Shown: positions 7,956 to 29,203 of the stretch, piece after piece
How positions within the stretch are numbered: the first letter of the stretch is position 1
Layout: every line of letters starts with the position of its first letter
DNA from: Candidatus Harpocratesius repetitus
GTDB taxonomy: Archaea > Asgardarchaeota > Lokiarchaeia > Sigyniarchaeales > Promethearchaeaceae
Direction of reading: 5' to 3'
DNA: 32,000 bases
NCBI GenBank assembly: GCA_021498095.1
Contig: JAIZWK010000001.1
Span: 3,840,001-3,872,000, forward strand
Made by a program: the position numbers and the translations under genes
Notes under the pieces: generated by a model
Databases searched by the model: none
Seen by the model: only the letters and a program-made list of their open reading frames with translations
What the model was told of the DNA's origin: nothing

Positions 7956-8329
7956 GTACAGAACTATACGATATACTTGAAAAATTTTCTTATTAATATT
8001 AGTAATGTTTAGAACAAAACACAAAATGCAATTAAATACATATTTTATGATTAAAATATATATTATTTCTAAATAAAAAGGATATTTCATTCAAAAAATG
8101 ATGTAAAATAAAAAATTTTTTTTTAAATATATATTTGAGATAAGATTTAGCATGTTTTTCCGAGATCTTCCAAAAAAGAAAGAAAAAGAATTAAAAAATA
8201 TATATTTAATTTAAAAAATATATATTCAATAGAAAACTTATCAACAGCAAAAAAATTTTTGATCAAGTTTGAACATAATGTTATCTCGTAATTGATCATA
8301 ATTATATACTTCAACACATAAATTAATTT

Positions 8330-9619
8330 ATGCTTAAAAAAACGTTTCCAAAAAAAGGAAAAGATTACTCTGAATTAAAATCAGATAAGTATGTCCAACG
8401 ATGGTTAGAGAATATATCTTCAAAAACACATAATCAGAAATTAGCAGTTTTTCAAAAATTTCTTAATTTTGTTGAGAAAAGTCCAGAAGAATTAATTTTG
8501 GAGCATTCTAAAGATTTAACTGAGATAGATCCAATTAAACGTTCAAATATCGCTAAAAGGCAATTGAACGCATATTTTCAATTTTTAAAAGGCGAACATA
8601 ATTCTTTGAATTCAAAAATGAATTCAAAGCCGATTTCTCATAACTCTGCTCGAATCAAAGTATATTCGATGATTTTAGGTTTCTATGCAAGAAATCATGT
8701 AAAAATTCAATTTGATCGAGGAGAAATACCTGCTGAAGAAAAAAAGGGAATTACTGATAAGGTTTGGCGAAATGGTAAAGATTCTGAACGTATTAGTAAT
8801 GAAGACAAAAAGGATTGGCTGAAAAAGATTTATAATCAATTTTCTACAGCAAAAAATAAAGCTATCTTTTTATGTATGAAAAGCTCAGGACTAGATCCTG
8901 TAGATCTTTTTAATTTAACTATATCAGATTATCATAAAGGATATTTTAAGAAATATAGCATATGTTATGTAGAAGGAAATCGCTCTAAAACTAAAGAAAC
9001 ATTCCAAACTTTCTTCGATAGTGAAGCTTGCGATGCACTTTACACTTATATGAAAGAAAGAAAAAGACGGGGAGAAAATTTGCAACAAAATTCATGGCTT
9101 TTTGTTGTAGATAAAAAAAATAAAAATGGGGAATATCGAAAAATGTTTTATACTCGATTTGCTATCGATCTCAAAGCAGTTTGTGAAATTCTTGAGCTGA
9201 AAAACATAACAACAAAACGAATTCGTGCGTGGTTTGATTCTAATGTAAAGAAAGGGCTTGATGCAGAGCTTCTAACCGTTTCTGAACGAATGATGGGTCA
9301 TAAGACTGATATAACTGCCAAATATCAGCAAATACTCAAAGATACTGAAGAATTCGCAAAATTCTATAAGGATGAAATAGAACCGAAACTTTTAATACTC
9401 GGACGGTCTGAATACGTGAAGAAAATAAATGAAGACATTGAATCATTGCAAAATACAATTCAGTTACAAGCTGAAAAAATAACAAAGATTGAAGCTGAAA
9501 ATAAAGAAATGAAGAAAATATTAGAAGACCGTTTGCAAAAATCAGAGAAAAACATGCAAAAGATGATGAAAATTATCGAAAATTTACAGAAAGATATGAA
9601 AAAGCAAATTTTATCTTAA
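8330..9619 (+). CDS. Tyrosine recombinase/integrase with C-terminal coiled coil
   Basis: N-terminal SAM-like region, box I-like AIFLCMKSSGLDPVDL, Lys in RSKT, KRIR (HxxR position), MMGH and KY (catalytic Tyr). The heptad-rich tail spans about the last 70 aa. Confidence 0.85.
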   Translation: MLKKTFPKKGKDYSELKSDKYVQRWLENISSKTHNQKLAVFQKFLNFVEKSPEELILEHSKDLTEIDPIKRSNIAKRQLNAYFQFLKGEHNSLNSKMNSKPISHNSARIKVYSMILGFYARNHVKIQFDRGEIPAEEKKGITDKVWRNGKDSERISNEDKKDWLKKIYNQFSTAKNKAIFLCMKSSGLDPVDLFNLTISDYHKGYFKKYSICYVEGNRSKTKETFQTFFDSEACDALYTYMKERKRRGENLQQNSWLFVVDKKNKNGEYRKMFYTRFAIDLKAVCEILELKNITTKRIRAWFDSNVKKGLDAELLTVSERMMGHKTDITAKYQQILKDTEEFAKFYKDEIEPKLLILGRSEYVKKINEDIESLQNTIQLQAEKITKIEAENKEMKKILEDRLQKSEKNMQKMMKIIENLQKDMKKQILS

Positions 9620-9763
9620 TTCATTAAGAAAAATTCTTATTTTTTTATTAGATTTTATTTCATCGTTAACAATTGCCTTCAGGTCAGCGAGAGCATAATA
9701 AAATTTTTCGAGTAAACTGTCATGATCATGAACTTGAGTATTTGTTTGCGTGTCGAGTGCCAT
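9611..9763 (-). CDS. Small hypothetical protein, 50 aa (MALDTQTNTQVHDHDSLLEKFYYALADLKAIVNDEIKSNKKIRIFLNELR)
   Basis: Hand-translated and below the ORF-track cutoff. It has an ATG start, an amphipathic helical composition, and a stop overlapping the integrase 3' end. Confidence 0.55.
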   Translation of the reverse strand: MALDTQTNTQVHDHDSLLEKFYYALADLKAIVNDEIKSNKKIRIFLNELR

Positions 9764-9852
9764 AAAAAAAAAAATATTTTGCACGGTTAAAGTCTCATAT
9801 TAAACAGTTAATAAACCAAAATCACAATTTCTATGCTTAGATTTCACTCTAC

Positions 9853-9917
9853 TTATTCTTACTTAAACCAAATTTATTCTTACTTAATCATATCTAATCT
9901 TACTTATTCTTACTTAA
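9853..9917. repeat. Three copies of TTATTCTTACTTAA (9853, 9874, 9904)
   Basis: Exact 14-mer direct repeats spaced 21 and 30 bp, plus a partial TCTTACTTA at 9898. Confidence 0.85.
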
Positions 9918-10102
9918 TAAATTAAAACACTATTTTATCTCGTTCACCAACTGCCTTTTGATGAAATTTTCTGCCAAATTGCTAAAATAGTTGAAAAAAA
10001 GTAGGTGTTAATGTTTTGAAAAATTTATTTAGATATTTTGCAAAAATGTAAAACCTTCAAATGCAGAAATAAATTCGTCAAAATTCTAAAGCAAATTTAC
10101 GG

Positions 10103-10119
10103 ATTCGCTTTAAGCGAAT
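10103..10119. promoter_or_regulatory. Perfect palindrome ATTCGCTT-T-AAGCGAAT, candidate operator
   Basis: 8-bp inverted repeat with a 1-nt spacer in the divergent intergenic region. Function is inferred. Confidence 0.45.
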
Positions 10120-10166
10120 TAATACTCTGCAGAATCGTATCTATCGTGAAGTAAATTAACTGTAAC

Positions 10167-10174
10167 TTTAAATA
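10167..10174 (+). promoter_or_regulatory. Archaeal TATA box (TTTAAATA) upstream of RHH-like ORF
   Basis: Consensus TATA box 30 nt upstream of ATG 10205. Confidence 0.45.
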
Positions 10175-10204
10175 GATGTGTTTCATTATTATTAGTGACA
10201 TATC

Positions 10205-10342
10205 ATGACAAAGCACTGTCATATTTTATTGCAAGATGATGATGTTGATTACTGCAAAAAGCATCATATTAGAATATCACCATTAGCTGCTGAATTATTT
10301 TCAGAACGTATCAAAGAATTACGACGAAAAATAGATTCATAA
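10205..10342 (+). CDS. Small ribbon-helix-helix (CopG/CcdA-like) regulator, 45 aa
   Basis: MTKHCHILLQDDDVDYCKKHHIRISPLAAELFSERIKELRRKIDS reads as an alternating beta strand followed by two helices. Hand-translated and not in the ORF track. Confidence 0.6.
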   Translation: MTKHCHILLQDDDVDYCKKHHIRISPLAAELFSERIKELRRKIDS

Positions 10343-10681
10343 ATTACACTCCAACAGGAGAAGAAAATGAATATATCACACCTAATATTGAGCTTCACAC
10401 CTTCTCCTGTTCTTTTTTTCAGCCGATTTTTTTGACTCACACACTTAAAACTCACAATTTTTTAAAATGTATGGATAAAAACTCGAAAAAAGAAAAAGAA
10501 GTGCTTTCGGAGTCTCCCTACTCAGAAAGCAATTGAAATGAACGAAATATAGATATTCTCTATAGTATTATTGCGATTTATCACATTTAAGCTTTCATTA
10601 TTAATCACCCAATAGCTCAAATTGATCATAAATTGTTCATTCTCGATCATCTCTTTCTGTTTTTCACACACAAAAAAAGGA

Positions 10682-11056
10682 ATGAACGAAATGTCGACTC
10701 AAACTCAAACTCACGCATCATATACGTATGCTGAAGAAAAATTAAGTGATATTCTGTTCTATTGCTCGAAAATCCCCACTAATTCAATACGTAAGTTGCC
10801 GTATGATTACCGGGAACATTTACGAGATTATTATCTAACGTTTAGACACAATAACTCGTTGATTGAACGTGCATTAGAAGCTATCCAACCGTTAATAAAC
10901 GAAAATTTTCAATCCGATCTTTATAATGGTTTACAAAAAGCGAAATTTTGGATTGTGAAGCGAAAACCTGAAACTTATGAAATAGATAAGGAATATCGTG
11001 CGTTGAGTTATCTCACACTCGCAATCTCTACTCTAAATATTCAAAATCTTGTGTGA
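10682..11056 (+). CDS. Hypothetical helical protein upstream of primase-helicase
   Basis: Open frame with ATG at 10682 or 10691, co-oriented and tightly packed with the primase operon. Confidence 0.7.
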   Translation: MNEMSTQTQTHASYTYAEEKLSDILFYCSKIPTNSIRKLPYDYREHLRDYYLTFRHNNSLIERALEAIQPLINENFQSDLYNGLQKAKFWIVKRKPETYEIDKEYRALSYLTLAISTLNIQNLV

Positions 11057-11057
11057 A

Positions 11058-11147
11058 ATGAGCAAAACAAGAAATTTTTTCAAACAACAACAACAAAAAC
11101 AGAATCAGTTAAAATTAGAAGCCAAAAATGAAAAAAGTGAAAAATAA
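11058..11147 (+). CDS. 29-aa micro-ORF (MSKTRNFFKQQQQKQNQLKLEAKNEKSEK) coupled to primase start
   Basis: It starts 1 nt after the upstream TGA, and its TAA overlaps the primase ATG (TAATG). Confidence 0.45.
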   Translation: MSKTRNFFKQQQQKQNQLKLEAKNEKSEK

Positions 11148-14100
11148 TGAATAAATTAAAAAAAAAGACTTCTAATAAAACTAATTTGCCTATTTGGGAG
11201 AGCATTAAAGCAAAAATTTCAATCTCTGATTTAGTTACTATTGAGAATGATTCGTTTGAATGTCCATCAGAAGGCAATAAAACAGGAAAATCTTGCGTAT
11301 ATTATCCAGAAACAAAGACATGGTATTGTCACAAATGTAAAAGAGGTGTTGACGTCATTGATTTATATGCAGTTCAAAATAATTGTTCACGCTCTGAAGC
11401 AATTAAAAAAATGGCTGTAGAGTATAAAATCCCTATGACAAATATGAGTAAAGAACAAATCAAAATGAAACAATCCGTGCAGGAAGTTCATGAATTCTTT
11501 ACTCAATTATGTGAAAAACGAATCAAAGAAGCAAAAAAAGGATTTTATTTTGAAAAGGTAATGAAAGATCGAGGATTTACTGAAGAAACAATGATTCAAA
11601 AAAGAATTGGGCTTTTTGATTCTACAGTTAAAGCCAAATTGTATGAAAAATACGGAGATAAAACTGCAATTGTAGAGAATCCTCACCATATTTTGATTGA
11701 AGCTGGTTTTTGTAACCAAAAAGGCAATTTTTCATTTGCAAAAAGAATTGTCTATCCATATCTTGATACAAATAAACGCCCATACTTCTTCATTTATCGT
11801 TTAATAAAAGGTGAGCCAGATTTTGCAGATGATCGGAAATATGTGAAGCAGTACACAAAAAATAGAGATTATATAGACCATAATCTCTTTGGTTTAGATT
11901 CAATTTCTGATAGAGAAATGCGAAAGAAATCTTTGATTATAACTGAAGGAATCACTGATGCAATTTCAGTGATTCAAGCTAAATTCCCCTGCATTTCACC
12001 CGTTACAATTCGATTTCAGAAAAAAGATTTAGAGAAAGTGCCAAAATATTGCAAACGTTTTTCTAAAGTCGTAGTGATCATGGATAATGAAGAAAATGAA
12101 AAAGGTTTAGAAGGTGCAACAGAAGCTGTCGAATTTTTAGTAGAAAATAATATTTCAGCTTATATAGGCATAATTCCAAATCCAGAAAATCTCAAAAAGA
12201 TTGATTTAGATGATTATCTTAAAAAAGGAAAAACAATTGAAGAACAAACAGAGTTATTACAAAAACTCGTAGATTCTGCTCAAGAAGGTAGAGCATTTTT
12301 AGTTTCTCAGCTTAAAACTTTTCCTCTAGGTGAAGTTAGAGATGAGAAGATTGAAAACCTTATTCTAAGTGCTAAATATTCTCCAACTTTTGAGATATAC
12401 AATCGTAAGTTGATCACTAAAGAACTTGGAATAACTGCAGGAGAATATAAGCTTTTTGATAATCGGATTAAAAAGCGAATTAAAGAACAAAAAAAGGCTG
12501 AAAAAGAAGAAAGAGATAGAGAAGCTGCCAAACTGCGAAAATTCATTCTTAATGAACGAATGAATGAAATTGAAGTGCTCAATCAAACAAATGCAATTCA
12601 ATTATCTACTATAGAACAATCTCAAATTGCTGATTTACAAGAACTCCCAGAAGGAAAATCAGAGAAAATAGAAATTCCAAATTGTGAATTTGTCGAGATA
12701 ATTCGTGATAATGCGGTAGAAGTTCGTTTAGAATTAAACAAGGGGATTCAACTCACTCGATTTACGATAATTAAAGAAGAGGTTGTGCCTGACCCTGAAT
12801 GGATCTATAGATGGGATGTGTTTACAATAACCGCAAAATATCTTATTCGATTCCCTAATCGCACCGAATGGCGATATGATTTTCTTATACAACGAGATAG
12901 CATAATCTATAAGCGATCTGATTGCAGTGAGGAAGAGTTAAAAAGTTTTTTGGTTGAAAAATGTAGCCAAATTTCTGGAGTGCGACCTTATTTGAATGCT
13001 GTGCTTCCCAAATATATCGGAGCGAGTTCACTTGATAAAACCGAGTTGTTTTCCGATGTGTTAGGATTTACTATCAAAGGTTGGAAACTCCCTCCCAAAT
13101 ATCTCTTTCGATCTCCCGAAGATTCTATTGCTAAAATTCATAAGAACATGAAAGATCTTATGGAACGAGAATATCATTACGGCTATCCTAAAACGACTCG
13201 AAAATATATTTCTAAGACAGATACTGAAGTTATACGACTATTTGAAAAGGATGGTTATACTCAACAAGGAGAGAATGATTTTAATGAGTTAATTTATGAA
13301 AAACCAATTAAATATGAAGGAGATCCAGAAATTAAAGAGTTAAAATGGGATTATCATAGTGCAACTCAAAAAACGGAAGTATGGGATTCTAAAACTGATA
13401 CATATACTATATGGGAGATTACTGAAACTTTATCAGTGCCTAAAGCTGAAGAAGTTAAACGATATTTTAAAGAGCTCTACAACAACACAGGCATTCAATA
13501 CAAAGATCTTATCTTTGCCTTTGGACTTTATCAACCATTTGGACATGCATTAAAAGCTCATACCAACCTTCAACCAATCTTAACAATGGAAGGATTACCA
13601 GGCGTTGGAAAAAGTGAAGCAACCGATATGATAACTTTAGGTTTCTGGGGGAATCATACACTCTTAGCTATATCAGAATTAGCTTCTCAAAGTCGTGCGA
13701 AAGGATTCTTAGCAAGTTCTACATTTTCGATTGGAATTGATGATGCGGAAGATATGAAAGAATTTTTAAAGGGGATCTTAAAAACACTCACAACTAAAAC
13801 AGTGAATTTCGTTGTTAAAGGAGGTGGAAAAACAAAACAAGAGTATGTTGTAGATAGACCATATTGCTCTATGCTAATCCCCAATTTTAACACACGAGCT
13901 GATATGTTTAAGGAAGATGATGCATTAGGCACTCGAAATATCAATTTGAAGATTACTCAATTAGAAGAAAAATTCAATTGGGGAAAAGTGTATAAATCTA
14001 AACCATCTGGTTATATAGGACGTTATATAATAGAACAAACGAAAAGATGGAATCTTGAGAATCTTGTAGATATTTATGAAAATGCATCTAATACTTTTAT

Positions 14101-14965
14101 TAAAGGGCGATCACGAAAAATTGAAAAAATTTTAGGTGTTGGAAAATGGATCTCTGAAAATCTCTTAGGATTACCTTTAGATATGAAAGATCTGAAATAT
14201 GTAATCACTGAAACAGTTTCTACAAATGCAATGAACATGATAGATTATGTTATCACTATGATTAGAGATGGGCGATATAGATCTTATCATCACCGAAATG
14301 ATAATGGAGAAATTGATTATACTTATTATGATTATAATCATTCACATCATTGGATTAAACATCCAATTTGCGAAGTTTCGTGTAAGATCGATGGGAAAAC
14401 GATGAATGGTTTTGGACTCTCAGCAGATAATATCGCAGATCTTCGTAAACGCCTTGAATTAAAAAAAACATGGGGATTTGAAGAACTTTATTCAAAACTA
14501 CATGCAAAACTCTCAAATGCTGAAATTGGTCGAAAAAATCTTCGATTTTATGATAAAGAAGCTCATGATTGGAAAAAATGGCAACGAAAATGTCTCTTTA
14601 TTTCAACTAAAGATATTGAAGATTTGGGGATAAACTTAGATGGGCAAATCGAAAAAGATGAAACTATTAAAGATGAATCTCTTGATATGTTTACCGATAC
14701 AAAAAAAGAAGAAAGAAAGTCAGCTCAAGGTTTTGGACTAGGTGAACCAATATATAGTGCAGATATATTCGCTATTATCAAAGAATTATATGAGAAAACA
14801 CGTGAACCAATCAATCATTCAGAAATCTTTGTTGAAAGTGTGAATAAACTAAAAATAGCAAAAAGAAAGATGTTTGATAATGCATTGAATTGGTTAGTAA
14901 AGTTTGATTACGTTGGTTTAGAAGAAGATTCAAATAATAATAATAAATTCTATTACCCAATTTAA
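11147..14965 (+). CDS. Fused DnaG-type primase (CHC2-like Zn finger + TOPRIM) / P-loop (SF3/AAA+-like) helicase with C-terminal winged helix
   Basis: CPS...SC...WYCHKCKRGVDVID zinc-binding domain; RIVYPY; TEGITDA and IMDNE (TOPRIM); KIDLDDY; Walker A GLPGVGKS; Walker B IGIDDAE; ALGTR (Arg finger-like); C-terminal wHTH-like segment. Confidence 0.88.
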   Translation: MNKLKKKTSNKTNLPIWESIKAKISISDLVTIENDSFECPSEGNKTGKSCVYYPETKTWYCHKCKRGVDVIDLYAVQNNCSRSEAIKKMAVEYKIPMTNMSKEQIKMKQSVQEVHEFFTQLCEKRIKEAKKGFYFEKVMKDRGFTEETMIQKRIGLFDSTVKAKLYEKYGDKTAIVENPHHILIEAGFCNQKGNFSFAKRIVYPYLDTNKRPYFFIYRLIKGEPDFADDRKYVKQYTKNRDYIDHNLFGLDSISDREMRKKSLIITEGITDAISVIQAKFPCISPVTIRFQKKDLEKVPKYCKRFSKVVVIMDNEENEKGLEGATEAVEFLVENNISAYIGIIPNPENLKKIDLDDYLKKGKTIEEQTELLQKLVDSAQEGRAFLVSQLKTFPLGEVRDEKIENLILSAKYSPTFEIYNRKLITKELGITAGEYKLFDNRIKKRIKEQKKAEKEERDREAAKLRKFILNERMNEIEVLNQTNAIQLSTIEQSQIADLQELPEGKSEKIEIPNCEFVEIIRDNAVEVRLELNKGIQLTRFTIIKEEVVPDPEWIYRWDVFTITAKYLIRFPNRTEWRYDFLIQRDSIIYKRSDCSEEELKSFLVEKCSQISGVRPYLNAVLPKYIGASSLDKTELFSDVLGFTIKGWKLPPKYLFRSPEDSIAKIHKNMKDLMEREYHYGYPKTTRKYISKTDTEVIRLFEKDGYTQQGENDFNELIYEKPIKYEGDPEIKELKWDYHSATQKTEVWDSKTDTYTIWEITETLSVPKAEEVKRYFKELYNNTGIQYKDLIFAFGLYQPFGHALKAHTNLQPILTMEGLPGVGKSEATDMITLGFWGNHTLLAISELASQSRAKGFLASSTFSIGIDDAEDMKEFLKGILKTLTTKTVNFVVKGGGKTKQEYVVDRPYCSMLIPNFNTRADMFKEDDALGTRNINLKITQLEEKFNWGKVYKSKPSGYIGRYIIEQTKRWNLENLVDIYENASNTFIKGRSRKIEKILGVGKWISENLLGLPLDMKDLKYVITETVSTNAMNMIDYVITMIRDGRYRSYHHRNDNGEIDYTYYDYNHSHHWIKHPICEVSCKIDGKTMNGFGLSADNIADLRKRLELKKTWGFEELYSKLHAKLSNAEIGRKNLRFYDKEAHDWKKWQRKCLFISTKDIEDLGINLDGQIEKDETIKDESLDMFTDTKKEERKSAQGFGLGEPIYSADIFAIIKELYEKTREPINHSEIFVESVNKLKIAKRKMFDNALNWLVKFDYVGLEEDSNNNNKFYYPI

Positions 14966-15068
14966 TAAAACCTAATGTTTTTTTTGCTTTTTTAGGTTTA
15001 CACAAACTTTCTAAAACTATGTGCAACTTTTGGGTTATCTATTGCGAGTTAGAAAAATGAAAATTTGT

Positions 15069-15527
15069 GTTGATCTGTTGATCTAATGATCAACGGCAAG
15101 ATACAATCATACAAGTTGTTATAATTGAGATACAAATGAGTGTTGATTGTCCTGTTGATCTTGTTGATCTACTGTTGATCTTGTCAGAATGAAGATCAAC
15201 TCAAATCTATTATGAATTAGCTAATTATTAGAGAGATGAAGTCAAAAATAAATTTTTCGTTGATCTTACTCTGAAACACACCCTATATATATAAAAAAAT
15301 AAAAAAAAATCTATCATATGACAGAAAGGTATATGTAAAAATTTTTTTTCTCTCGTAACGAGGATGTGTTTTTCAGAAGAGATCAACTAGTACTAGTAAC
15401 TAGCTAAATATTATATATTATATAAGAATTAAAGAGCTACAGAGTAGTATCTAAGTAATTTTTCAGTTGATCTTACAGATCAACAGGGGATCAACACAAG
15501 ATCAACAGATCAACTAAATTGATCAAC
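15069..15527. repeat. Dyad-symmetric iteron array (15 GTTGATC/GATCAAC heptamers) flanking an AT-rich core; putative replication origin
   Basis: GTTGATC at 15069, 15077, 15154, 15163, 15174, 15259 and 15466. GATCAAC at 15088, 15194, 15381, 15478, 15489, 15500, 15508 and 15521. AT-rich core at about 15283-15350. Confidence 0.85.
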
Positions 15528-15686
15528 TTCTCAAGTATGTTTAATTTTATCCTTTTACATATTCTGATCTTTCTTACCTCAAAATCCCGAAAAAATTTCC
15601 CAAATCCGACTTTTCTGACCAAAAACATATCATATTTTTCAGAAAATGGCGAAACGCTTAAATAATTGAAGTTCTTTTATTTAACT

Positions 15687-16217
15687 ATGAGTAAACATTT
15701 TGATCCTATTTCTTTTGAATCTTTTTGCGATTATTTTCCCCAATTTCTCAATATAGAGTTTCCACAGGTGGATTTGATACATTTATGGGTAGTTGGAGCA
15801 AGATTCGGGATCGGAAGGTTGCATCTGGAGAAAAAAGATGAGATTTGGCAAATTTGGATGAAAGAATTGATGCTACCATTTTCAGAGCTGAAAGTTTTGC
15901 ATTGGGCTAACTTAACATTTACACAACACGGAAATCTTCCTGAAGTGATAACTCCTGCGGATGAATTTCACAAGATTGTAATTGATGGAGAAAAATTCCA
16001 ATGGCAGAAAGACAAAGATCTTTATGAGTTTTTCAATAAGAAATATAAAAAAGATTTTGAGAATTGGGTCTATAATGCTAGTTTAAGACCTGCTATTAAC
16101 CATTTTTCCAAAGGCAATAATTTATATCTCAATGTTGCAAAGTTGCGAAAAAAAGGGAAAAAAGGTGATCTTGATGAGTCGTTTGAAGAGATCCCATCAA
16201 AATTTATATATTTCTAA
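15687..16217 (+). CDS. Hypothetical protein
   Basis: Open frame with ATG at 15687, preceded by a TTAAATA TATA-like box at about 15658. No recognised motif. Confidence 0.7.
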   Translation: MSKHFDPISFESFCDYFPQFLNIEFPQVDLIHLWVVGARFGIGRLHLEKKDEIWQIWMKELMLPFSELKVLHWANLTFTQHGNLPEVITPADEFHKIVIDGEKFQWQKDKDLYEFFNKKYKKDFENWVYNASLRPAINHFSKGNNLYLNVAKLRKKGKKGDLDESFEEIPSKFIYF

Positions 16218-16465
16218 ATAGTTCCATCTTTCTTTTTGTTTTGTCTTACTCTTCTTGCCCTGATATTCTTGATGAATTCAGCAAATACAAGATCATCATA
16301 TTTATTCTCAAAACAGTCAACACAAAAGTATTCTTTGTTAAATCGTCTTAGTTCATTCGTGATTTCTCCACATTCAGAGCAAATATTCAATGAATATCCT
16401 GAATAAACACCTTCTAATTTAACGACATTTTGTCTTAAACTTTGATTTCCAGTAATGTATGCCAT
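16214..16465 (-). CDS. Small zinc-finger protein
   Basis: CSEC-x15-CVDC with a basic C-terminus; ATG start. Confidence 0.7.
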   Translation of the reverse strand: MAYITGNQSLRQNVVKLEGVYSGYSLNICSECGEITNELRRFNKEYFCVDCFENKYDDLVFAEFIKNIRARRVRQNKKKDGTI

Positions 16466-16559
16466 AATTATTTTTTTTCAAATTTTTCTTTTAAAGAGAA
16501 ATTGGTAAATGATTTTTTAATTTGTTCTTTTAGTAAAAATTAGATTATTCTGAGATTTT

Positions 16560-16612
16560 ATTCGACCAAATTCGACCAAATTCGACCAAATTCGACCAAA
16601 TTCGACAAAATT
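16560..16612. repeat. Tandem 10-bp repeat (ATTCGACCAA)x4 + ATTCGACAAA
   Basis: Directly visible perfect tandem array in a divergent intergenic region. Confidence 0.95.
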
Positions 16613-17555: not shown

Positions 17556-18368
17556 ATGCCAAAACAAAATCCCAAACATAACAAAAGAAAACTTAAAAAC
17601 AATCCTAAACATAACAAGAAGAACATCTTAAACCAATCTATACAAAATGACTTAAGATATAGTGACAATCTTCATTCCCCTTTTGAAAATGATTTATATC
17701 CAATTCTTATTCAACAAAAGATAGATCAATCTGAATATGGGAAAAAACGAATTAGAGATTTATCATATTTAGAATTTAAAAAAGCAACTATCACGTTTAT
17801 TGGAATTCAGAATATCAAAGAAAGTTTATTAAAATTAACTTATGATGTTTATTCTCTGGGGGCAGATACAATGCCCCTTGCAATTATGAATTATTTAACT
17901 TATGATTTCAACAGACAAAGAGAAAAGTGTTTTGCAAAAGATTTTTCTAAATTCGCTAATACAACAAATCCTCCTTACATTGAAGGGTTTACTGAACGAC
18001 AAATTCAAGATTTTTATAGATTTCATAAATTATGTCGTGAAAATAAACATAATTTCACGATATCACAGAAAGCACACATTTTGACCTTAATCCCAACAAA
18101 TTATAGTTCAGGGTCTTTATCACCAGAAGAAGATGAAAATTTCACTTCAATTCTATCTAATTATACTTCTAATAATTTTTGCAGACAATGTAATGATCCT
18201 TTTTGTTGTTTAATAAATCCTATTGAATATCCTAGTGCAAAATGGGGAAATTCTCCAAGTGAAAGAGAATATTGTTTCTTTTTACAAGATCAGAAATGTG
18301 TTGCTTATGATTTTCGTCCTAATGTTTGTCATCAATTTGATTGTTTTAAAACAGCATGTTCGATATGA
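17556..18368 (+). CDS. YkgJ-like cysteine-cluster (CxxCxxCC) protein
   Basis: C-terminal CRQCNDPFCC...CFFLQDQKCVAYDFRPNVCHQFDC. The basic N-terminus carries NPKHNK twice. Confidence 0.8.
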   Translation: MPKQNPKHNKRKLKNNPKHNKKNILNQSIQNDLRYSDNLHSPFENDLYPILIQQKIDQSEYGKKRIRDLSYLEFKKATITFIGIQNIKESLLKLTYDVYSLGADTMPLAIMNYLTYDFNRQREKCFAKDFSKFANTTNPPYIEGFTERQIQDFYRFHKLCRENKHNFTISQKAHILTLIPTNYSSGSLSPEEDENFTSILSNYTSNNFCRQCNDPFCCLINPIEYPSAKWGNSPSEREYCFFLQDQKCVAYDFRPNVCHQFDCFKTACSI

Positions 18369-18865
18369 AATGTTAGATATGGATGCATATCACTTAAAGT
18401 AACTGAACATTTTCTTAGTTTTGAGCGATATACTGCACCCAATGTTTTTCTAATTCGATCTACTGAGTAGTAATCATCTAAAATCGCTAAATATTCATAA
18501 TCTCTTAATGAACGATAGATTCTATTAATTGAAACGTCTGAATAGAGCAAAATATCTTTAGACTTCCGAAAGTTGATTTGGTAAAGTCGTGTGTTCATAA
18601 ACATTATCTCTTGTTTCTTACTCTCATAATGTCCTGTTCCGTGAAAATCATGCAGATAAATTTTTCTTTTTAAAGAATTTAAACGCATTGCGTTTAGATT
18701 CATAGCTGCAATCATAAGTTTAACAGTTGCATCTCTAGCTTCTTCTTTGGAGAAGTAATAAAGAGATAATTCAACGTTTTCTAACGTAAAATCTGATTTT
18801 AGATAGTCTACGTTTAAATTGTGTTCTATTTCATCCATTTCTTGCGTTTTTGTTTTAATTGCCAT
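18332..18865 (-). CDS. Hypothetical protein (third gene of resolvase operon)
   Basis: 177-aa ORF with ATG start, 6 nt downstream of the preceding gene's stop. Confidence 0.7.
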   Translation of the reverse strand: MAIKTKTQEMDEIEHNLNVDYLKSDFTLENVELSLYYFSKEEARDATVKLMIAAMNLNAMRLNSLKRKIYLHDFHGTGHYESKKQEIMFMNTRLYQINFRKSKDILLYSDVSINRIYRSLRDYEYLAILDDYYSVDRIRKTLGAVYRSKLRKCSVTLSDMHPYLTFHIEHAVLKQSN

Positions 18866-18871
18866 TCATCT

Positions 18872-19402
18872 TCACTCTCTTAATCGATCACGATAAAGTT
18901 CTTTATATTTTTGACTTATATGATTATATAACTCTCGATAATCGAACTCTCGAGTTTGTTCTTGTCTTAAAATGAGTTGATAAAGATGCTTTAAAGCCGA
19001 TGCTTTATACATTTTGCGAAAATCTTGTAAATCTCTCTTAATAAACGATTTTAACACTAAAATCTTGTTCCAATATCTTTTTTCGCTCAAAATTAAGGGA
19101 GTTTCACGTATTTTAGCACAAATCTTTTCGTTTCGTTGTTTACGTTGACTTTCTCTTCCATTTCTCAATATTTCCCCAATTCCATGAGGAGAATTGATTT
19201 GTTTCCGTTTTTGAGATGAATGTGTCTCAAACGGATGATTTTCACGTATTTTTTTTGCTTGAACATAACGATCTTCAATCTGCATTTTACGTTTTGATAA
19301 TTTTTTGCTCTCATATTCTCCCCAATTGCGATTCAGACCTAATTCATCAGCCATTTTAAGGAATTCATTAGCAGATTTCGATTTTTTGATTGGATTTTTC
19401 AT
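18872..19402 (-). CDS. Highly basic hypothetical protein
   Basis: 176-aa K/R-rich ORF with an ATGA overlap with the resolvase stop. Confidence 0.7.
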   Translation of the reverse strand: MKNPIKKSKSANEFLKMADELGLNRNWGEYESKKLSKRKMQIEDRYVQAKKIRENHPFETHSSQKRKQINSPHGIGEILRNGRESQRKQRNEKICAKIRETPLILSEKRYWNKILVLKSFIKRDLQDFRKMYKASALKHLYQLILRQEQTREFDYRELYNHISQKYKELYRDRLRE

Positions 19403-20052
19403 TTTGCATATATCCCCCTAATATTAATTCCATTTTTTTTATCTTTAGCAAGTTTCTTAAGCCTTCTATAGACTGTTGTTGAACTACTGCCCACGATTTT
19501 TGCTATGTTCGTGCAACCTAATCCTAATTTATATAATCGAACAATTTCTTTTTCATTTAACTCAATCTTCTTTCTACCCATCACTACTCCGTTTGCAATA
19601 GCGATTTCACGTCCTCGTTGAAGCCTTTCTCTTATTGAATTTGCTTGATATTCAAGAAAAGCAACGTAGTTTGTCAGCATAAACTTCCCTGTGGATGTGG
19701 TTGTGTCAATTTTCATTCCTGAAATTGTTATAATTTTTTTATCAATTTCATCCATTTTTTGTATAAATTGAAGCAAATTTAGAGCAGATCGCCCAATTCT
19801 GCTTAGATCATAGCAGATAATTCCTTCTATATCTTCATTTTCTGCAAGATCATTTAACATTTGTTGAAATTGAGCTCGATTTTTTTCTTTGAAACCTGAG
19901 ATTCCGTCATCCTTAAAAAATTTTTCAACGATTATCTCAGGATGTCTTTTGAGATATGATTTGATCTCAAAAATTTGATTCTCTATTGTATTATCCTGCT
20001 TTTGTTTTATACTACTTACTCGACAATATGCATAAAATTTACGTGTATTCAT
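19399..20052 (-). CDS. Small serine recombinase (resolvase/invertase) with C-terminal HTH
   Basis: YAYCRVSS (catalytic Ser), RAQFQQML, DLSRIGRS, TGKFMLT, ERLQRGR...MGRK and HTH LGCTNIAKIVGSSSTTVYRRL. Confidence 0.93.
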   Translation of the reverse strand: MNTRKFYAYCRVSSIKQKQDNTIENQIFEIKSYLKRHPEIIVEKFFKDDGISGFKEKNRAQFQQMLNDLAENEDIEGIICYDLSRIGRSALNLLQFIQKMDEIDKKIITISGMKIDTTTSTGKFMLTNYVAFLEYQANSIRERLQRGREIAIANGVVMGRKKIELNEKEIVRLYKLGLGCTNIAKIVGSSSTTVYRRLKKLAKDKKNGINIRGIYAK

Positions 20053-20296: not shown

Positions 20297-22165
20297 ATGG
20301 TATGCCCAAAATGTCAATCCCTTTATATTATTGAGGGATCAGAGAAGAAATGGTGTCCTAATTGTAATCCACCTGAAAATATATTAAAGATTTATAATAA
20401 GAATGAAGCCATTGATATTCTACGAACAGAGCTTGAGGAATTAAAAAACTATGTTAAATTGATTATTAAGGGATACTCTCTTTTAAGTTTATTAAAATTT
20501 TTCAATAATATACGCAATAATCCTATGTTATTCAATATTAGTCCAGAGAAAAATGAATTTTTACAAAAATGGTTTGAAATCTCATACTTAATGAGCTGTA
20601 TTGGAAATATACACAAAAATCAACCAGATTTATTTGGAACAACAAATGAACTTAATGAAGAGCACATTAATGAATTGATTCACTATTCTACTAAATTATA
20701 TCTTTCAAATATTTTCTCATATCATATTATGAATGATAGAATGATGATGGTTTTGTATAAAGATGATCCTGTTTATCAAGGACACCAAATTAAATTTACT
20801 GAAAAATGGCAACCAATAAAAGCAAGGATGGAATTATTAGGATTTACTGCATATGAATCAGAAACTAATACAATTTATTCTTATATGCTCTGGTTTCGTA
20901 AGGAAGAATTAAGAACTATAGTACAAGAAATCAGTAAGGAGATAAAAGATGGTGCAGAAATATTCGAATCAATACGTTGGGAACAATGGTTGAATTTTAC
21001 TTATCCTCTGGAAGATTACCCAATTAGAAAAAAAGGAACACGGTTGAATAGTCTTTTCTTATTCTTAGAGAAAATCAGTGATATTAAAACTAGTATAATT
21101 TCCTTAAAAAAATGGGAATGGCTAAAAAAAAAATATATCCAATCGGAAGATCTTAGAATTTTAGAATATAATACAATTTCAAAATCTTCTTCAAATTTTG
21201 ATGTTCCGGGTTTATTCTTTTTGTATTCAGATTATATTTTTATCCCATATATATTTCTTAATAGGTTTGTAAAATCTAAAAAAAAAATATATTTTAATCC
21301 TAATTCTGGAAAATTTCTAAATCTTTATGGAAAAATTGTTGAGTTAAAAATAAAGAAATGGATTACTACTATTAACGTTGATTTTCGAGATAAAAACTCG
21401 AAAATATTATTTCGATATAAAAATAAAGAAATTCATCCTACAGAAGAACTATTTGATTTAGGATATATTCACCATCCCACTCAAAGTTTTTTCATTATTG
21501 AAGTTAAAGCTCCCATTCGATTTAATTTCAACCAAGATTTAGAAAAGTTAATTCAAAAAGATTTTGATGAATTTAAAGACAGAGATATTCCAAGAATCAA
21601 AGAAAATTTAGATAAAATTGGGATTAAAGGTTATAAATTGTTTCCAATTTTTATGCATTTTTCAAGTTTCATAAATATGCACCCAAAATTTATACCAAAT
21701 ACTACAATCGATGGAATAAAAATCGCCACATCAAAATCTGAAGTTCATTCTATTACATATTCTACTTTAAAAGAATGTGATCCCAATTTGAGTTTTGAAG
21801 ATTTATATAATATACCATATGACTTAGAAACAATCTCTAAAAACAAAGAAATTAAATTCTTTTTAGAAAATTATACTTGGAATTATAGAGACGTTTCAGA
21901 TATAATTCATTTAGGAAAAAAGGATGAATTCTATTTTAATTCTGTTGAAATTCTTCAAATTAGTTTATCTATGGATCCTCCGGAAATTGTTGTTAAATCA
22001 ATTAATCAAGATCGATCAGAAATAGGAAATATAGATATTCCTAAATATTTATTTGATGTTGCAAAAAATCAATTAGTAAAGGGCGATAAACTTAATATTC
22101 TCATCTATAGATTCTTTACTGATTCACCTGTAATTGTTCTTGTTCAATTTACTAAGATAAATTGA
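20297..22165 (+). CDS. Zn-ribbon + helical + PD-(D/E)xK (NERD-like) nuclease domain protein
   Basis: N-terminal CPKC...CPNC; GKIVE...ELFDLG...FIIEVK nuclease motif; beta-rich C-terminus. Confidence 0.65.
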   Translation: MVCPKCQSLYIIEGSEKKWCPNCNPPENILKIYNKNEAIDILRTELEELKNYVKLIIKGYSLLSLLKFFNNIRNNPMLFNISPEKNEFLQKWFEISYLMSCIGNIHKNQPDLFGTTNELNEEHINELIHYSTKLYLSNIFSYHIMNDRMMMVLYKDDPVYQGHQIKFTEKWQPIKARMELLGFTAYESETNTIYSYMLWFRKEELRTIVQEISKEIKDGAEIFESIRWEQWLNFTYPLEDYPIRKKGTRLNSLFLFLEKISDIKTSIISLKKWEWLKKKYIQSEDLRILEYNTISKSSSNFDVPGLFFLYSDYIFIPYIFLNRFVKSKKKIYFNPNSGKFLNLYGKIVELKIKKWITTINVDFRDKNSKILFRYKNKEIHPTEELFDLGYIHHPTQSFFIIEVKAPIRFNFNQDLEKLIQKDFDEFKDRDIPRIKENLDKIGIKGYKLFPIFMHFSSFINMHPKFIPNTTIDGIKIATSKSEVHSITYSTLKECDPNLSFEDLYNIPYDLETISKNKEIKFFLENYTWNYRDVSDIIHLGKKDEFYFNSVEILQISLSMDPPEIVVKSINQDRSEIGNIDIPKYLFDVAKNQLVKGDKLNILIYRFFTDSPVIVLVQFTKIN

Positions 22166-22700
22166 TATTATATTCTAAAAAGCACTCTGTTCAAAAATAG
22201 AGAATAAATCCTTTTGAAAGAATGGAAATAATAGATTATGAAAGGTTTAAAGTAATCATTTATTTTTTTAAGAATCTTTATCAACATTTGATAGATTGAT
22301 AAAAAATTGAAAATCATGCATATTTTATGCACTTGCTGATATTCCATCTCAATTTGAAATTAGTCGATTAAAAATTTAGAAATATTATTATCAATTTCAA
22401 CTATATTTTGATTAAAATAATCAAAAATCGACCCATAATTATTTTTTCTAAATCTCATTTTTACCGACTGAAATAATTTTTGGATAGATTTGATTATTGT
22501 TGGAAAATTAATGATATAAATTGTAATTCAGTCAAAAATAAAGAAGGTGCAGGAACCTCTTAAAAAAAGCCGCAAATTAAAAAAGAAATGAGATGAAGTT
22601 GATATTAATTAAAATCCGAAAAAAGTAAAATATCTGATAATAATTAATTTTCATTATCTTTGTTATTTAAATTATTATAATCATAACTTATACTAGAAGA

Positions 22701-24368
22701 ATGAATTTTATTCCATTATGCTTAGGATCAAATCCAGAAAAACGAGATGCTTTAGAAGTAAATTTATTATATAACTTACAAGAATTAGGTTGGGAATGTC
22801 ACCAAAATGTCAGAGAAAAGAGTAGCGAAACTGATGTTGTTGCATATCACACGATTTATCCCAATCCATTATATATTGAATGTAAAGCATGGGAAGAATC
22901 TGTTGGTGCAGATGAAGTTGATAAATTCTACTCTAAAATGAATAGACTAAATGACTATGTTAAATTCGGGTGGTTTATTGCACTCAACGGATATAAAAAA
23001 GGTGTTGAAAACTCATTTAAAGATCTTTCAAATTTAAAATTATTTACAGGTATTTCTTATTACCAAATGCTAAAAAATCAAAATTTAGTCATACCTTATG
23101 AGAATATCATTAATAAATACCATATTTTACTAAAAGAGATTCAAAAGATTTATTTAATCTTTAAAAAGGAAAAGATAATTTGGTTAATAACATTGGAGGA
23201 TGATTATTTTATTTTGGAAACAGGAAATAAAGAGATTTTAGAAAAAGAAGATATATCATTTATCTATTCAAACTTTAAATTAATGTCTTTAACCAATGAA
23301 AATAAAATACAAAGTTGCGATGAATGGGAAATTTTAAAACTATTTTTTGATCAAAAGTCACACACAATAGAAGAAATATTAGAAAACAGAACTTATCATA
23401 AATCTACAATCAGATTCCATCTTAGGCATTTAATAAATGAGAATATTATAATTAAAATCAAAAATGAATATATTTTAAGCAATTCTTTTTCTATAGCAGA
23501 AAAAATTGTTCAGAAATGTTCAAAGATCGAGAGTTTTGAAAGTATTCCTCAAATTAGATTTAATGAAAATAAAATTAGGTCTTTTGCGAAATCAATTTTC
23601 TTTAAAGACAATCTTAACAAATTTACCAAGAATATCTTGAAGAAATTTAATATATTTAAGAAAGATAAAGAATCTATAAAAATTATTGAAAAAACAATTG
23701 CAATTTCTCCTTCAGCAATTTCTTATTGTTTTGGGGAATTTGATCGTATATGGGGAGAAGGTGAGTATACATTTGAACATCTAATGCAAACATTATCAAT
23801 TCTCATTCTTATTGATTGTATGAATTTGAGAATATCACTCTTTCAAGATTTAAGTAATGATAATAAATTGATATTTATCAATCCACAAATTGAAATAAAA
23901 TACGCCCTAAGGAATGAATTATACTTACAATTAAAAGCATATCCTACAAATATAGTTATTGCTAAATTGAAAGAGGGACATGGAATAATGTTGAGAGGAT
24001 CGCTGTTAACATCTGCTGATGATATTATTTTGAACGATATGGGAAATCTATTTATGAGTTCTGAACAATATGAGAAAGCAATTGAAATTTTTGAAGATAA
24101 TATAAAATATTATCCAAATACAATAGGAGAATTGATATCAGTTGTAAATTTGATGTGCTGCTATTTAAGAATCAATAAACTTGATGAAATTGCTGATCTT
24201 TATCAAAATTATCATGTTAAAATTGAAAAACTTTCAATGAAAAATATTGAAACTAAAAATGAAAAATTAGTCATTGAAAATGAAATACCCAAAATTAAAG
24301 AATTATTCCAGAAAAATTATGAAAATTATTTAAAAATAAAAATACAGAATCAAGGGGAAAAAAACTAG
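22701..24368 (+). CDS. Mrr-like restriction endonuclease domain fused to winged HTH and TPR-like region
   Basis: LE...ETDVVA...YIECKAW...VGADEVDKF...GWFIALNGY; HTH KSTIRFHLRHLINENII; TPR-like GNLFMSSEQYEKAIEIFEDNIKYYP. Confidence 0.75.
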   Translation: MNFIPLCLGSNPEKRDALEVNLLYNLQELGWECHQNVREKSSETDVVAYHTIYPNPLYIECKAWEESVGADEVDKFYSKMNRLNDYVKFGWFIALNGYKKGVENSFKDLSNLKLFTGISYYQMLKNQNLVIPYENIINKYHILLKEIQKIYLIFKKEKIIWLITLEDDYFILETGNKEILEKEDISFIYSNFKLMSLTNENKIQSCDEWEILKLFFDQKSHTIEEILENRTYHKSTIRFHLRHLINENIIIKIKNEYILSNSFSIAEKIVQKCSKIESFESIPQIRFNENKIRSFAKSIFFKDNLNKFTKNILKKFNIFKKDKESIKIIEKTIAISPSAISYCFGEFDRIWGEGEYTFEHLMQTLSILILIDCMNLRISLFQDLSNDNKLIFINPQIEIKYALRNELYLQLKAYPTNIVIAKLKEGHGIMLRGSLLTSADDIILNDMGNLFMSSEQYEKAIEIFEDNIKYYPNTIGELISVVNLMCCYLRINKLDEIADLYQNYHVKIEKLSMKNIETKNEKLVIENEIPKIKELFQKNYENYLKIKIQNQGEKN

Positions 24369-24649
24369 AAGAATATTAAAAAAATACTTCAGAGAATCTA
24401 AATCTTAAACTTGAAATAAAAATCAAAATTAGTGTTAATAAGTAGAATTAAATTCAAGATTAAGAAAATCTAACCAAAGTAAAAATAATGGTGTTTCTTC
24501 AATAATAAAGCATTTCTCTTTCCATATCTTTCAAAACGTTTTATAATACATACCAATTCATCACGATCATAATATAGAATTAAAGAGAGTTTAATAAATC
24601 ATCAATAGATTGTTTTTTTACTTTCATTTACTATATTTCATTCAACCAA

Positions 24650-25612
24650 ATGGATCGAAATCACAAAATAATATCTCAATTAGAAGAAGATTTAATATCA
24701 GAAAATCTTGAAATTCTAAAATGTTTGAAATTAGGACAACTTGTAGCTAAACATTATAATGATATTGAAATGGAATTTTGGATTAAAGATGAAATTTTTT
24801 GATTTGATAAAAGTAAATATCAAACAGATCCTGATAAATTTCCACAATATAGGATTGTAACTAGACTTTTAAAAATACCATCGTTTGAATCTTCACCAGT
24901 AGGATTCAGTCGACCCCAATAAATTCCAAAAATCAAGTATGAAGTTGTTCCTAAATATTAAATTGATGATAATATCCCAAAAAGCATTAATTTCAACAAA
25001 AAAGAGAATATAGATTTGAATTATATTCTAGATGAAGATAGTGTAGATTTTCAAATTGAACCTTCTGAATTTAAAAACATACTCAATGTAGTAATTATGA
25101 AATTATTAGATTATATCTATGAAAAATCAAATTCTATCGAAAATATAGCAGAAAATACTTTGTTATTTAATTTGTTCAATAAATTTCATCAGATTACAAA
25201 AAGATTAGAACATAGACATGCTGGAATACCTATTTTGGTTATTGAAAATGGATACAATCTTAAAGATTTACTTAATACTCTTTTATATAAACATTTTGAT
25301 TCCATTCAAGTAGAAGAATATGGACACATTTATGCAGGAAAGCGATCCAGAATTGATTTTTTTTGAGATATGATGAAATTGCTATAGAAGTAAAGTGTGT
25401 AAGAGATTCAAATCATGCAAAAAGAATCTTAAGAGAAGAAATGATCTTAGATATTGCATATTACTCTAATAGAAAGGAATTTAAACACCTACCTCCTTAT
25501 TTATGATTTTAAGTCACTTCTATTAAATAGAACTAATTTTATCAAAGATTTAAAAGAAAATGTCCCAGAGAATTACTCTTCAATTAAAATTGTAATCAAA
25601 CCAGATTTATAA
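24650..25612 (+). pseudogene. Decayed AbiTii-like + REase_DpnII-MboI-like nuclease fusion
   Basis: One frame runs from ATG 24650 with in-frame stops at 24800, 24920 and 24959, then frameshifts at the T8 run (25357-25364) and near 25490. Reconstructed motifs are WIKDEIF*F...PQYRIV and RIDFFLRYDEIAIEVK...DIAYY...LIYD. Confidence 0.7.
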
Positions 25613-25828
25613 CCTATGATATCATGTAATTACACCCTTTTTTTTCTATCTTTAACCCTTAGAAAACAAGCATCTGAGAATTGAAAACTCTGAATTTATT
25701 TGTATGTAGATGTATGTAGATGCGTTTATCGTATAAAATGATTGAAATTAGGTGCGATAACAGACGGATATTTAAGATATTCATACATTATTAATGAATT
25801 ATAAATATAACGCAAATAATGTAAAGAT

Positions 25829-26437
25829 ATGGAAACATGTGAAATGATTAGAAACGCTGTCATTAAGGATTTTCAAGAACGGAGAAAAAAAATAGCAGAA
25901 ATAATGAATATTAAACTACCTGTATTTCAAAAAGAGAATCGTGAAACTGAAAAGATTAGAAATTGGTTTAGAGAAAATTATAATCTCAATTTTCAATTTG
26001 AAGATTTTGAACAACTTTATACTATTCGTATAAACAAAGAAATGGGGATTGAAACAAGATACGTAAAAGGAATTCAAATTGAAATTAATCATCGCTGTTT
26101 AATTTCTGAAATCGAGATTTATTTAATTATTGGTCTCTTTCAAAAAAAATATATTGAGAAAATTTATACTAATTTCAAAAAATATCAAGATCTGGTGAAA
26201 AGAAATTCATATATCTCAAACAGACTAAAGCAAATCGAGGATAAATTATGGAAGTATGTTGATAATGATAGGTATTGGGTAATTTCAAATAAAAAATTTG
26301 AAAAAATAATAGGTTTTGCAGATGATTTGTGTATCTTATATGCAGATGGTATAGTAGAATATTATGATAATGAGATACAAAATATCAATCAATTGATTAC
26401 TCTACACTTTCCTGAATATTTTAAGCATAAAAGATAA
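25829..26437 (+). CDS. Hypothetical protein
   Basis: 202-aa ORF with ATG start and no recognised motif. Confidence 0.65.
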   Translation: METCEMIRNAVIKDFQERRKKIAEIMNIKLPVFQKENRETEKIRNWFRENYNLNFQFEDFEQLYTIRINKEMGIETRYVKGIQIEINHRCLISEIEIYLIIGLFQKKYIEKIYTNFKKYQDLVKRNSYISNRLKQIEDKLWKYVDNDRYWVISNKKFEKIIGFADDLCILYADGIVEYYDNEIQNINQLITLHFPEYFKHKR

Positions 26438-26580
26438 CAAATCATTGTCAAATTTTTACTTTTTAATACTTTTTTTGCTTCAAGGGGGAATTTAGATCTG
26501 AAATCGTTGAAAAACAATCCAAAAATCAAAGTTGGAGATTAAAACTGGAAAACAAGTTAGAATATCCCTGAAAAAATGAC

Positions 26581-26900
26581 TTAATGCCATCCTCGTCTTT
26601 GATCAAGATAAAATGAAATTATAAAATCACCTATACCTCCTTTCCAATGAACAATATTACCTTGCATAAACTCAAACCGATCATTGCATTTTTCACAAGA
26701 AATTTGGATTTCATCATGAAGTTGTTTTATTTTCAGCATGTTTTTACATTCTGGACAAATAATTTTGTCTTTGAGTATAAATATCCCTTCTCTTTCAACA
26801 TAAATAGATTAAGGTGCTATTTATATTTATAATATCTAAAGTAGAAACCTTAAATGAATCTGGAGAGAACACCCAAATTCTTTTTCTGTGCTTTGGAAAT
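26581..26900 (-). pseudogene. Probable remnant of a zinc-ribbon protein gene
   Basis: The minus frame reads IYVEREGIFILKDKIICPECKNML...SCEKCNDRF...GWH*. It lacks an upstream start and has an apparent frameshift near 26810. Confidence 0.4.
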
Positions 26901-29180: not shown

Positions 29181-29203
29181 ACCCTATTTACTCAGTGTTA
29201 ATC

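Follow-up and report, generated by a model that had tools for sequence, protein, structure and literature searches.

The stretch analysed here (hereinafter the window) comprises 32,000 nucleotides from the closed genome of Candidatus Harpocratesius repetitus (G000:C1:3840001-3872000; genome 4.36 Mb, GC 31%), and positions given without a prefix are counted within it. It carries an integrase, several small open reading frames (ORFs), a primase-helicase fusion and an array of iterons, which in our assessment are likely to form the core of an integrated plasmid-like mobile element of ~36 kb (a "cryptic integrated element") lodged between guaA and a phosphatase gene. Judging from structural models, the replication module appears to belong with, and to work like, the self-loading helicase systems of the staphylococcal pathogenicity islands (SaPIs) and SCCmec, and the element as a whole fits best among the archaeal cryptic integrated or integrative plasmid-like elements. 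An earlier reading of this DNA, made from its letters and ORFs without database searches (the sequence-only reading), had proposed an element resembling SaPIs and other phage-inducible chromosomal islands (PICIs), either satellite-like or integrative plasmid-like and possibly a new family. The SaPI-like replication module and the integrated plasmid-like character stand, the former on the helicase fold and the origin layout; the satellite lifestyle, possible as it is, gains no support from the analysis, in which no helper, packaging or capsid-redirection genes were found. The suggestion of a new family was too strong with regard to the type of element, as archaeal elements combining an integrase, a replication protein and defence cargo are already known, with Yucahu-i (PMC11529989) and the cryptic integrated elements of Thaumarchaeota (PMC6563490) being similar to the present one.

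The extent of the element follows from the same-genus genome G002, whose contig C44 is collinear with the window over 63-7988 and then resumes at the homologue of position 3884367 of the present genome (G000) and onward. In G002 guaA is followed, across a gap of ~125 bp, by the phosphatase gene, the homologue of which lies at G000 3884367. Because guaA directly adjoins this gene there, the region from ~7990 to ~44320 (G000:C1 ~3884320) is an insertion, which measures ~36.3 kb and extends ~12.3 kb beyond the window end. On the left, the window holds genes for a Ras-family GTPase, a VTT-domain protein, Rpb6 and guaA; a low-molecular-weight phosphatase gene adjoins the element on the other side. 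The GC content of the island (0.22-0.31) is lower than that of the flanks (0.32-0.36), and the integrase gene begins 340 nt from the left junction. Thus, the comparison with a relative having an empty guaA-adjacent site, which the sequence-only reading had recommended, supplies direct evidence that the element is integrative, and its attribution to an Asgard archaeon likewise holds since relatives of the integrase are annotated in Promethearchaeum syntrophicum MK-D1, of the same GTDB family. The size expected of a PICI does not hold, with the insertion running past the end of the window. At the guaA locus itself, the longest frame on the minus strand spans 6393-8090, but its upstream 45 codons are not conserved, and comparison with G002 and MK-D1 suggests that translation probably starts at the ATG at 7955 rather than at 8090. 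A shared integration site in MK-D1 was considered and rejected, with 8.4 kb of host genes, found elsewhere in G000, separating guaA from the nearby MK-D1 integrase.

The replication module is built around P0002, for which the fusion of a DnaG primase to a P-loop helicase had been read correctly from the sequence. Its primase part is matched by TIGR01391 (dnaG) over residues 39-390 (E 3.4e-22, under the equivalog cutoff), by the Pfam families Toprim_2 and Zn_ribbon_DnaG, and by the DNA primase family phrog_6444 (E 4e-15). It combines the zinc ribbon and Toprim core of the DnaG type, with the ribbon being of the Cys4 rather than the CHC2 form. The full-length sequence relatives of P0002 share the N-terminal third alone and have D5_N/DUF5906 helicases instead of the Cch-like tier, and the C-terminal part forms its own family of ~115 representatives. 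In the latter, the Walker A motif GVGKS lies at residue 819, and the Walker A K822, Walker B D865, the sensor-1-like N915, R930 and R988 are conserved across 43 homologues. An AlphaFold2 (AF2) model of residues 740-1180 built from this 43-sequence alignment (pLDDT 90.4) retrieves 5dgk (E 1.8e-9) and 8tch (E 1e-6) with Foldseek. The best solved matches (VIA) are SCCmec Cch (5dgk; Z 18.9 over 331 residues) and SaPIbov1 Rep (8tch; Z 17.1 over 322), which span model residues 1-427 of 441; archaeal and eukaryotic MCM proteins come next, clearly below Cch and Rep, at Z 12-14. DUF927 finds no Pfam match in P0002 at E <= 0.01, and the ATPase family profile reaches neither Cch nor Rep in a PDB sequence search at E <= 10. 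With no sequence-level link to DUF927, Cch or Rep, the relationship therefore rests on structure: as modelled, the P0002 ATPase folds like Cch and SaPIbov1 Rep, which are self-loading helicases of the MCM-like kind. Homologues of the ATPase tier (P0021, P0026, P0034, P0078 and P0025) occur as fusions to MCM_N and MCM_OB, Prim-Pol or DnaG-like N-termini, one of them with an MCM8-like C-terminal winged helix, and these proteins could be intermediates linking the MCM of cells to the Cch/Rep helicases found on bacterial islands.

Immediately downstream of the P0002 gene, beginning 104 nt past its stop codon, lies the array that we consider its candidate origin. The heptamer GTTGATC occurs at 17 sites in the window, 15 of them within 15069-15527; shuffled sequences would be expected to contain 3.9 per 32 kb (none of 100 shuffles reaches 17), the genome averages 0.16 per kb, with five or more copies in no further 500-bp segment of its 4.36 Mb. 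Seven copies, mostly in the left arm, are forward and eight, mostly in the right arm, are reverse, and the AT content peaks at 0.80-0.88 between the arms (~15266-15345). These features agree with the sequence-only description of an iteron array directly 3' of the helicase gene and with the layout published for SaPI origins, namely iterons immediately 3' of rep, in opposed orientation, with an AT-rich centre (PMC9371898). In those systems, the iterons are read by a winged helix of the Rep C-terminal tier (PMC9371898; bioRxiv 10.64898/2026.10.17.759575).

Arrays laid out in the same way, though with other repeat words, also follow the homologous helicase genes of three further genomes in the family. 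There are nine GGTTACA iterons in the cultured MK-D1, seven of the AACTTGATCC type in G003, and seven GGAACAA in G007; in G003 and G007 the array lies directly 3' of the gene, its opposed arms enclosing an AT-rich spacer. That the repeat word co-varies with the protein provides the strongest computational case for regarding the array as the cognate origin. The related MK-D1 element (L022 8890-18428; NZ_CP042905.2, ~1881-1891 kb) comprises the integrase P0005, two small ORFs and a 1254-aa DnaG-like/P-loop protein, the primase domain of which is 42-45% identical to that of P0002, with a distant P-loop core (hhalign probability 95.8). Its iterons lie in a 2.3-kb non-coding stretch after the gene, which also holds a separate 21-nt repeat in three copies, ATTAGTGTTAACAGAAATAGA. 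The D5-type helicase loci of the integrase family have no comparable iteron cluster except for a possible ACACACA run in L052. As the present iterons contain GATC, control by GATC methylation or restriction was also entertained; it finds no support because GATC is not avoided in the genome (observed/expected, O/E, 1.26), and neither is TCGA (1.24), while GTAC (0.36) and CTAG (0.29) are strongly depleted genome-wide.

The integrase P0001 is itself without a Pfam match. Its ten homologues, five of which have precomputed PF00589 matches, form with it a family of 11 members, two of them from MK-D1, and the family profile matches the archaeal XerA (4a8e, E 1.7e-4). The AF2 model of P0001 (pLDDT 82.5) matches XerA, the integron integrase IntI, Tn1549 Int and Cre (Foldseek E 1e-7 and weaker), and as modelled it displays the catalytic-domain fold of the tyrosine recombinases, consistent with the initial call of an integrase at this locus. 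Its catalytic set (R-K-H/KxxR-H/W-Y) is incomplete: while K220, K296xxR299, H324 and Y332 are retained, with KxxR in place of HxxR and a C-terminal coiled coil of ~70 aa across the family, the Arg-I position aligned to the XerA arginine is occupied by Asp189. This aspartate is invariant in all 11 members, which are spread over different elements, and is thus a family trait rather than a sign of decay. The likewise invariant R218, beside the hairpin lysine, might substitute for the absent arginine. The family is repeatedly linked to co-oriented replication genes of varying type: elsewhere its members precede, by 1-3 kb, replicative helicases of other kinds in the same orientation, with Prim-Pol and D5_N in L025 and D5_N/DUF5906 in L027, L052 and L054. 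Its insertion sites are varied and non-tRNA. Five related elements have in common a BRE/TATA-like block that lies ~45 nt ahead of the int start codon. Two metagenomic loci with the same integrase family carry, respectively, a TFIIB-like gene with a block of co-directional unassigned ORFs (L026 11776-17771) and a DUF2793 protein (L049 6593-8290), on the basis of which the family may also serve viruses.

Both key genes are single-copy in the genome and patchily distributed. P0002 is matched in seven of 41 relatives and found in neither same-genus genome, the ATPase profile in seven of 301 genomes sampled from the phylum, and the integrase profile in three of the 41 relatives, a pattern distinct from that of core chromosomal loci. 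Upstream of P0002, the predicted divergent small ORFs are indeed present, with 9611-9763 and 10205-10342 flanking the TTCTTACTTA repeats, and so is the coupled operon ending in the primase-helicase gene, in which overlapping ORFs culminate in a TAATG stop/start overlap at 11145-11149 that couples the 32-aa ORF to the large one. The ribbon-helix-helix label given to the 45-aa ORF could not be verified, there being no Pfam, NCBIfam or PDB match; of the small ORFs, only the 50-aa one has a counterpart in a related element, that of L025, to which it is 43% identical over 35 aa.

Table 1. Features of the element core and adjoining cargo within the window
Feature	Position	Strand	Remarks
Left junction and integrase promoter region	7990..8329		homology to the empty site of G002 stops near 7989
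Integrase P0001, 429 aa	8330..9619	+	tyrosine-recombinase fold; C-terminal coiled coil of ~70 aa
50-aa ORF	9611..9763	-	convergent with the 3' end of the integrase gene
Operator-like TTCTTACTTA repeats	9850..9918		between the divergent small ORFs
45-aa ORF	10205..10342	+	divergent from 9611-9763
ORF without assigned function	10622..11056	+	144 aa from TTG start; ~124 aa from ATG at 10682
ORF without assigned function, 32 aa	11049..11147	+	overlaps into the large ORF
Primase-helicase fusion P0002, 1272 aa	11147..14965	+	
P0002 residues 1-480	11147..12590	+	DnaG-type primase; Cys4-type zinc ribbon C39, C50, C61, C64; Toprim E267, D312
P0002 residues ~481-739	12591..13363	+	linker and helicase N-terminal region; 551-677 conserved in stand-alone homologues
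P0002 residues 740-1180	13364..14686	+	Cch/SaPI-Rep-like (MCM-like AAA+) ATPase and C-terminal beta-rich/winged-helix-like tier
P0002 C-terminal tail, residues 1181-1272	14687..14965	+	homologue has MCM8-like winged helix at this position
Candidate replication origin	15069..15527		15 exact GTTGATC iterons over 459 bp; consensus TGTTGATCT
ORF without assigned function, 183 aa	15666..16217	+	
ORF, 83 aa	16214..16465	-	weak DksA-like zinc-finger match
Second array	16560..16612		10-bp unit repeated five times in tandem, four copies being exact ATTCGACCAA and the other differing by one mismatch; precedes the 16631 operon
Two co-directional ORFs, 301 and 270 aa	16631..18368	+	without recognisable family
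Two unassigned ORFs and small serine recombinase	18332..20052	-	recombinase with Resolvase and HTH_7, 217 aa
Defence-rich cargo	20297..32000		Mrr_cat-HTH-TPR, DpnII/MboI-like fragment, Schlafen/AlbA_2

On the reading of an integrated plasmid-like element, the integrase would excise it as a circle, upon which the winged-helix tier of the helicase part would read the TGTTGATCT iterons, loading one helicase hexamer per arm as the AT-rich centre melts. The tethered primase would then lay primers for host polymerases to complete replication. The small divergent ORFs and operator-like repeats might control whether the element is integrated or replicating, multimers may be resolved by the serine recombinase, and the defence genes would be the cargo that pays for carriage. 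We hold more tentatively, as a rather doubtful extension, that the module is a working autonomous replicon using the self-loading helicase/iteron mechanism of SaPIs and SCCmec, one shared across domains, with helicases of archaeal mobile genetic elements (MGEs) linking the cellular MCM to Cch and Rep.

Several observations weigh against this picture. K-mer and blastn-short comparisons, in which the left junction was set against the right one and against the entire island, recovered AT-rich chance matches only and no attachment-site (att) direct repeats at the two junctions. The read-level data consist of assembled Logan contigs from the one run holding the stretch, and in these no joint across the junctions indicates an excised circle or an empty site. 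Integrase activity is unproven because the first catalytic arginine is missing across the whole family; for P0002, the primase activity is likewise predicted, as are iteron binding, origin melting and 3'-5' helicase activity, for which the change of iteron sequence with the helicase in four loci gives indirect support. Moreover, the 36-kb insertion may be a composite of several units, since the GC content drops to ~0.25 to the right of the serine recombinase (~20 kb) and the cargo is partly decayed, as in the DpnII/MboI fragment; a smaller core of ~12 kb from the integrase to the serine recombinase is possible. Finally, unrecognised virus genes possibly lie among the ~17 ORFs of the insertion without annotation. 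Some of these points would also suit an immobilised remnant, that is, an old integrative replicon trapped at a variable hotspot that collects defence genes and having lost excision and replication: the missing att repeats, the integrase without Arg-I, the pseudogene fragments in the cargo and the compositional break, which suggests several insertion events. We nevertheless regard such a remnant as unlikely, as the frames of both the integrase (429 aa) and the primase-helicase (1272 aa) are intact, all 15 of 15 heptamers are exact, the ATPase catalytic residues are conserved, the aspartate variant is invariant in the family over different elements, and searches of the two same-genus genomes did not recover the region.

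The gene order—integrase, divergent small ORFs, primase-helicase, origin, accessory and defence genes—is that of the SaPIs, and with the match of the helicase fold to SaPIbov1 Rep it invites a reading as a virus satellite in the PICI/SaPI or pSSVi sense, which would stay integrated until a helper infects and would then be excised, replicated from the iteron origin and packaged in helper capsids. Defence cargo is typical of satellites, and a recent proposal describes a putative satellite in Asgard archaea that encodes a helicase-primase (bioRxiv 10.64898/2026.08.12.739948). Yet no packaging, small-terminase or capsid-remodelling gene was recognised in the insertion with Pfam and PHROGs, a helper virus is not known, and the scans of IMG/VR with the helicase-tier and integrase-profile patterns used gave no relative. 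At ~36 kb the insertion is over double the length usual for PICIs, whose ~10-18 kb suit a helper capsid of reduced size, and the same design of replication module is used by non-satellite elements such as SCCmec; on balance, we find a satellite improbable. The insertion could also be a provirus of an unrecognised Asgard virus family with its structural genes among the unannotated ORFs, given that archaeal virus capsid proteins are often missed by HMM libraries and that the TFIIB (L026) and DUF2793 (L049) loci provide virus-like hints for the same integrase family. However, no capsid, portal, terminase, tail or conjugation/secretion family was recognised across the whole insertion, including the 12 kb past the window, with the above libraries, which extends the original observation that the window has no structural virus or conjugation genes. 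The annotated genes outside the replicon are mostly for defence, and there is no long co-directional block of late genes; hence, we give a provirus very little credence.

Among known systems, the SaPI module (SaPIbov1/SaPI2 Rep, an MCM-like superfamily (SF) 6 helicase, and SaPI5 PriRep5) resembles P0002 in uniting a self-contained primase with an initiator-helicase, fused as in SaPI5, in having iterons just 3' of the gene and opposed around an AT-rich centre (PMC9371898), the sequence of which varies between related elements, and in its upstream integrase and small divergent ORFs. In contrast to it, the present host is archaeal and the primase DnaG-type; the origin has 15 heptamers over 459 bp, as compared to 6-12 penta- or hexamers over ~300 bp; and the ~36-kb element has no sequence-level Rep/Cch/DUF927 match, recognised packaging or interference genes or known helper. 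The SCCmec Cch (5dgk; DUF927 family) likewise couples an MCM-like AAA+ domain to a C-terminal DNA-binding tier, on an integrated island that moves by site-specific recombination, but it is not primase-fused, the SCCmec recombinases CcrA and CcrB are serine recombinases, and DUF927 is unmatched here. A third parallel is phage P4 alpha and the phage fusions of DnaG primases to DUF927-type helicases (PMC4889955), with an N-terminal DnaG-type primase fused to a replicative helicase and an origin-binding C-terminus; P4 alpha differs in its SF3 (D5-type) helicase and bacterial host, and the nearest primase-domain relatives of P0002 are also of the D5_N/DUF5906 kind.

The closest archaeal counterparts are the thaumarchaeal cryptic integrated elements (Krupovic et al. 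2019, PMC6563490). Elements of this class are integrated and multigenic, encode an integrase, in many cases along with a replication protein of MGE type, and show none of the hallmarks of viruses, casposons or conjugation, a definition that covers the present element. One of the thaumarchaeal elements, NitAR2-E2, encodes a Cch homologue (PMC6563490). They share with it the integrase, MGE-type replication protein and restriction-modification (RM) or defence cargo and differ in belonging to another phylum and in that their origin is not described; the DnaG-type primase fused to the helicase and the aspartate at integrase Arg-I set the present element apart. Yucahu-i of Atabeyarchaeia (PMC11529989) offers an Asgard host, a tyrosine integrase, small DNA-binding proteins, a replicative helicase and a type IIG RM fusion as cargo, the last paralleled by the MmeI/Eco57I-like IIG RM gene of the present insertion. 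An SF3 helicase, 11 ORFs, a defined 11-bp att motif and a demonstrated circular form set it apart.

To the right of the origin, the 10-bp array may be operator- or centromere-like. Repeats of TTCGACC with a 10-bp period also occur weakly in the cargo at 28808-28831, and six copies lie between host genes at an unrelated locus (G000:C1:906480-906550; L068 1470-1540); the array may be a host-factor site rather than an element-specific centromere. For the two ORFs that follow it, the ESM Atlas yielded nothing of use (scores 0.77 and 0.84). The serine recombinase is possibly a multimer resolvase or a separate mobile unit. In the ~12.3 kb of the insertion beyond the window we found a second Schlafen protein, an MmeI/Eco57I-like type IIG RM enzyme, an AbiTii-DpnII/MboI restriction endonuclease and an OLD-like AAA_21-Toprim protein, of which PADLOC named the OLD-like ATPase only. 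The type IIG RM gene is 52% identical to one ~6 kb from the second MK-D1 integrase P0004 (L024 3156-6365, minus strand; L023 2-1282, minus strand), and therefore similar cargo travels with this integrase family. Short matches of the cargo DNA to MK-D1 were considered as CRISPR spacers and rejected, as there is no array at those loci.

A candidate att motif, TCGTAAT..GATCA, near both ends was dropped because its left copy falls inside the BRE/TATA-like block. Among the Logan contigs, the genome offers no match for the loose ends at 8231, 10505, 14311 and 23675, and one at 8266 is a fold-back at the palindrome TTGATCAA; a joint of 20500 to 22904 was ignored, one side consisting of just 21 letters. 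The word depth is ~10 on the island, falling to 2-4, versus 20 in the flank, but as contig depth is not copy number nothing is drawn from it.

To our knowledge, few Asgard mobile elements have been described, and we know of no Asgard genetic tools. Against this background, we count as new the DnaG-type primase on an archaeal element, the defined candidate origin and its co-variation within an Asgard lineage, the cognate protein-iteron pair in a cultured species, and the Asp-variant integrase family, with the Asp-for-Arg exchange posing a separate small puzzle in recombinase enzymology. The locus offers a compact candidate replicon of ~4.5 kb consisting of one protein and one origin, and the MK-D1 pair of the 1254-aa protein with its GGTTACA iterons would, if true to this assignment, be a ready-made Rep-ori cassette for a first Asgard genetic vector. 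More generally, the module would extend to Archaea the SaPI/SCCmec type of self-loading MCM-like initiator-helicase together with its iteron-origin grammar, and the fusions to MCM N-terminal domains in this helicase family bear on the origin of the helicases of bacterial islands.

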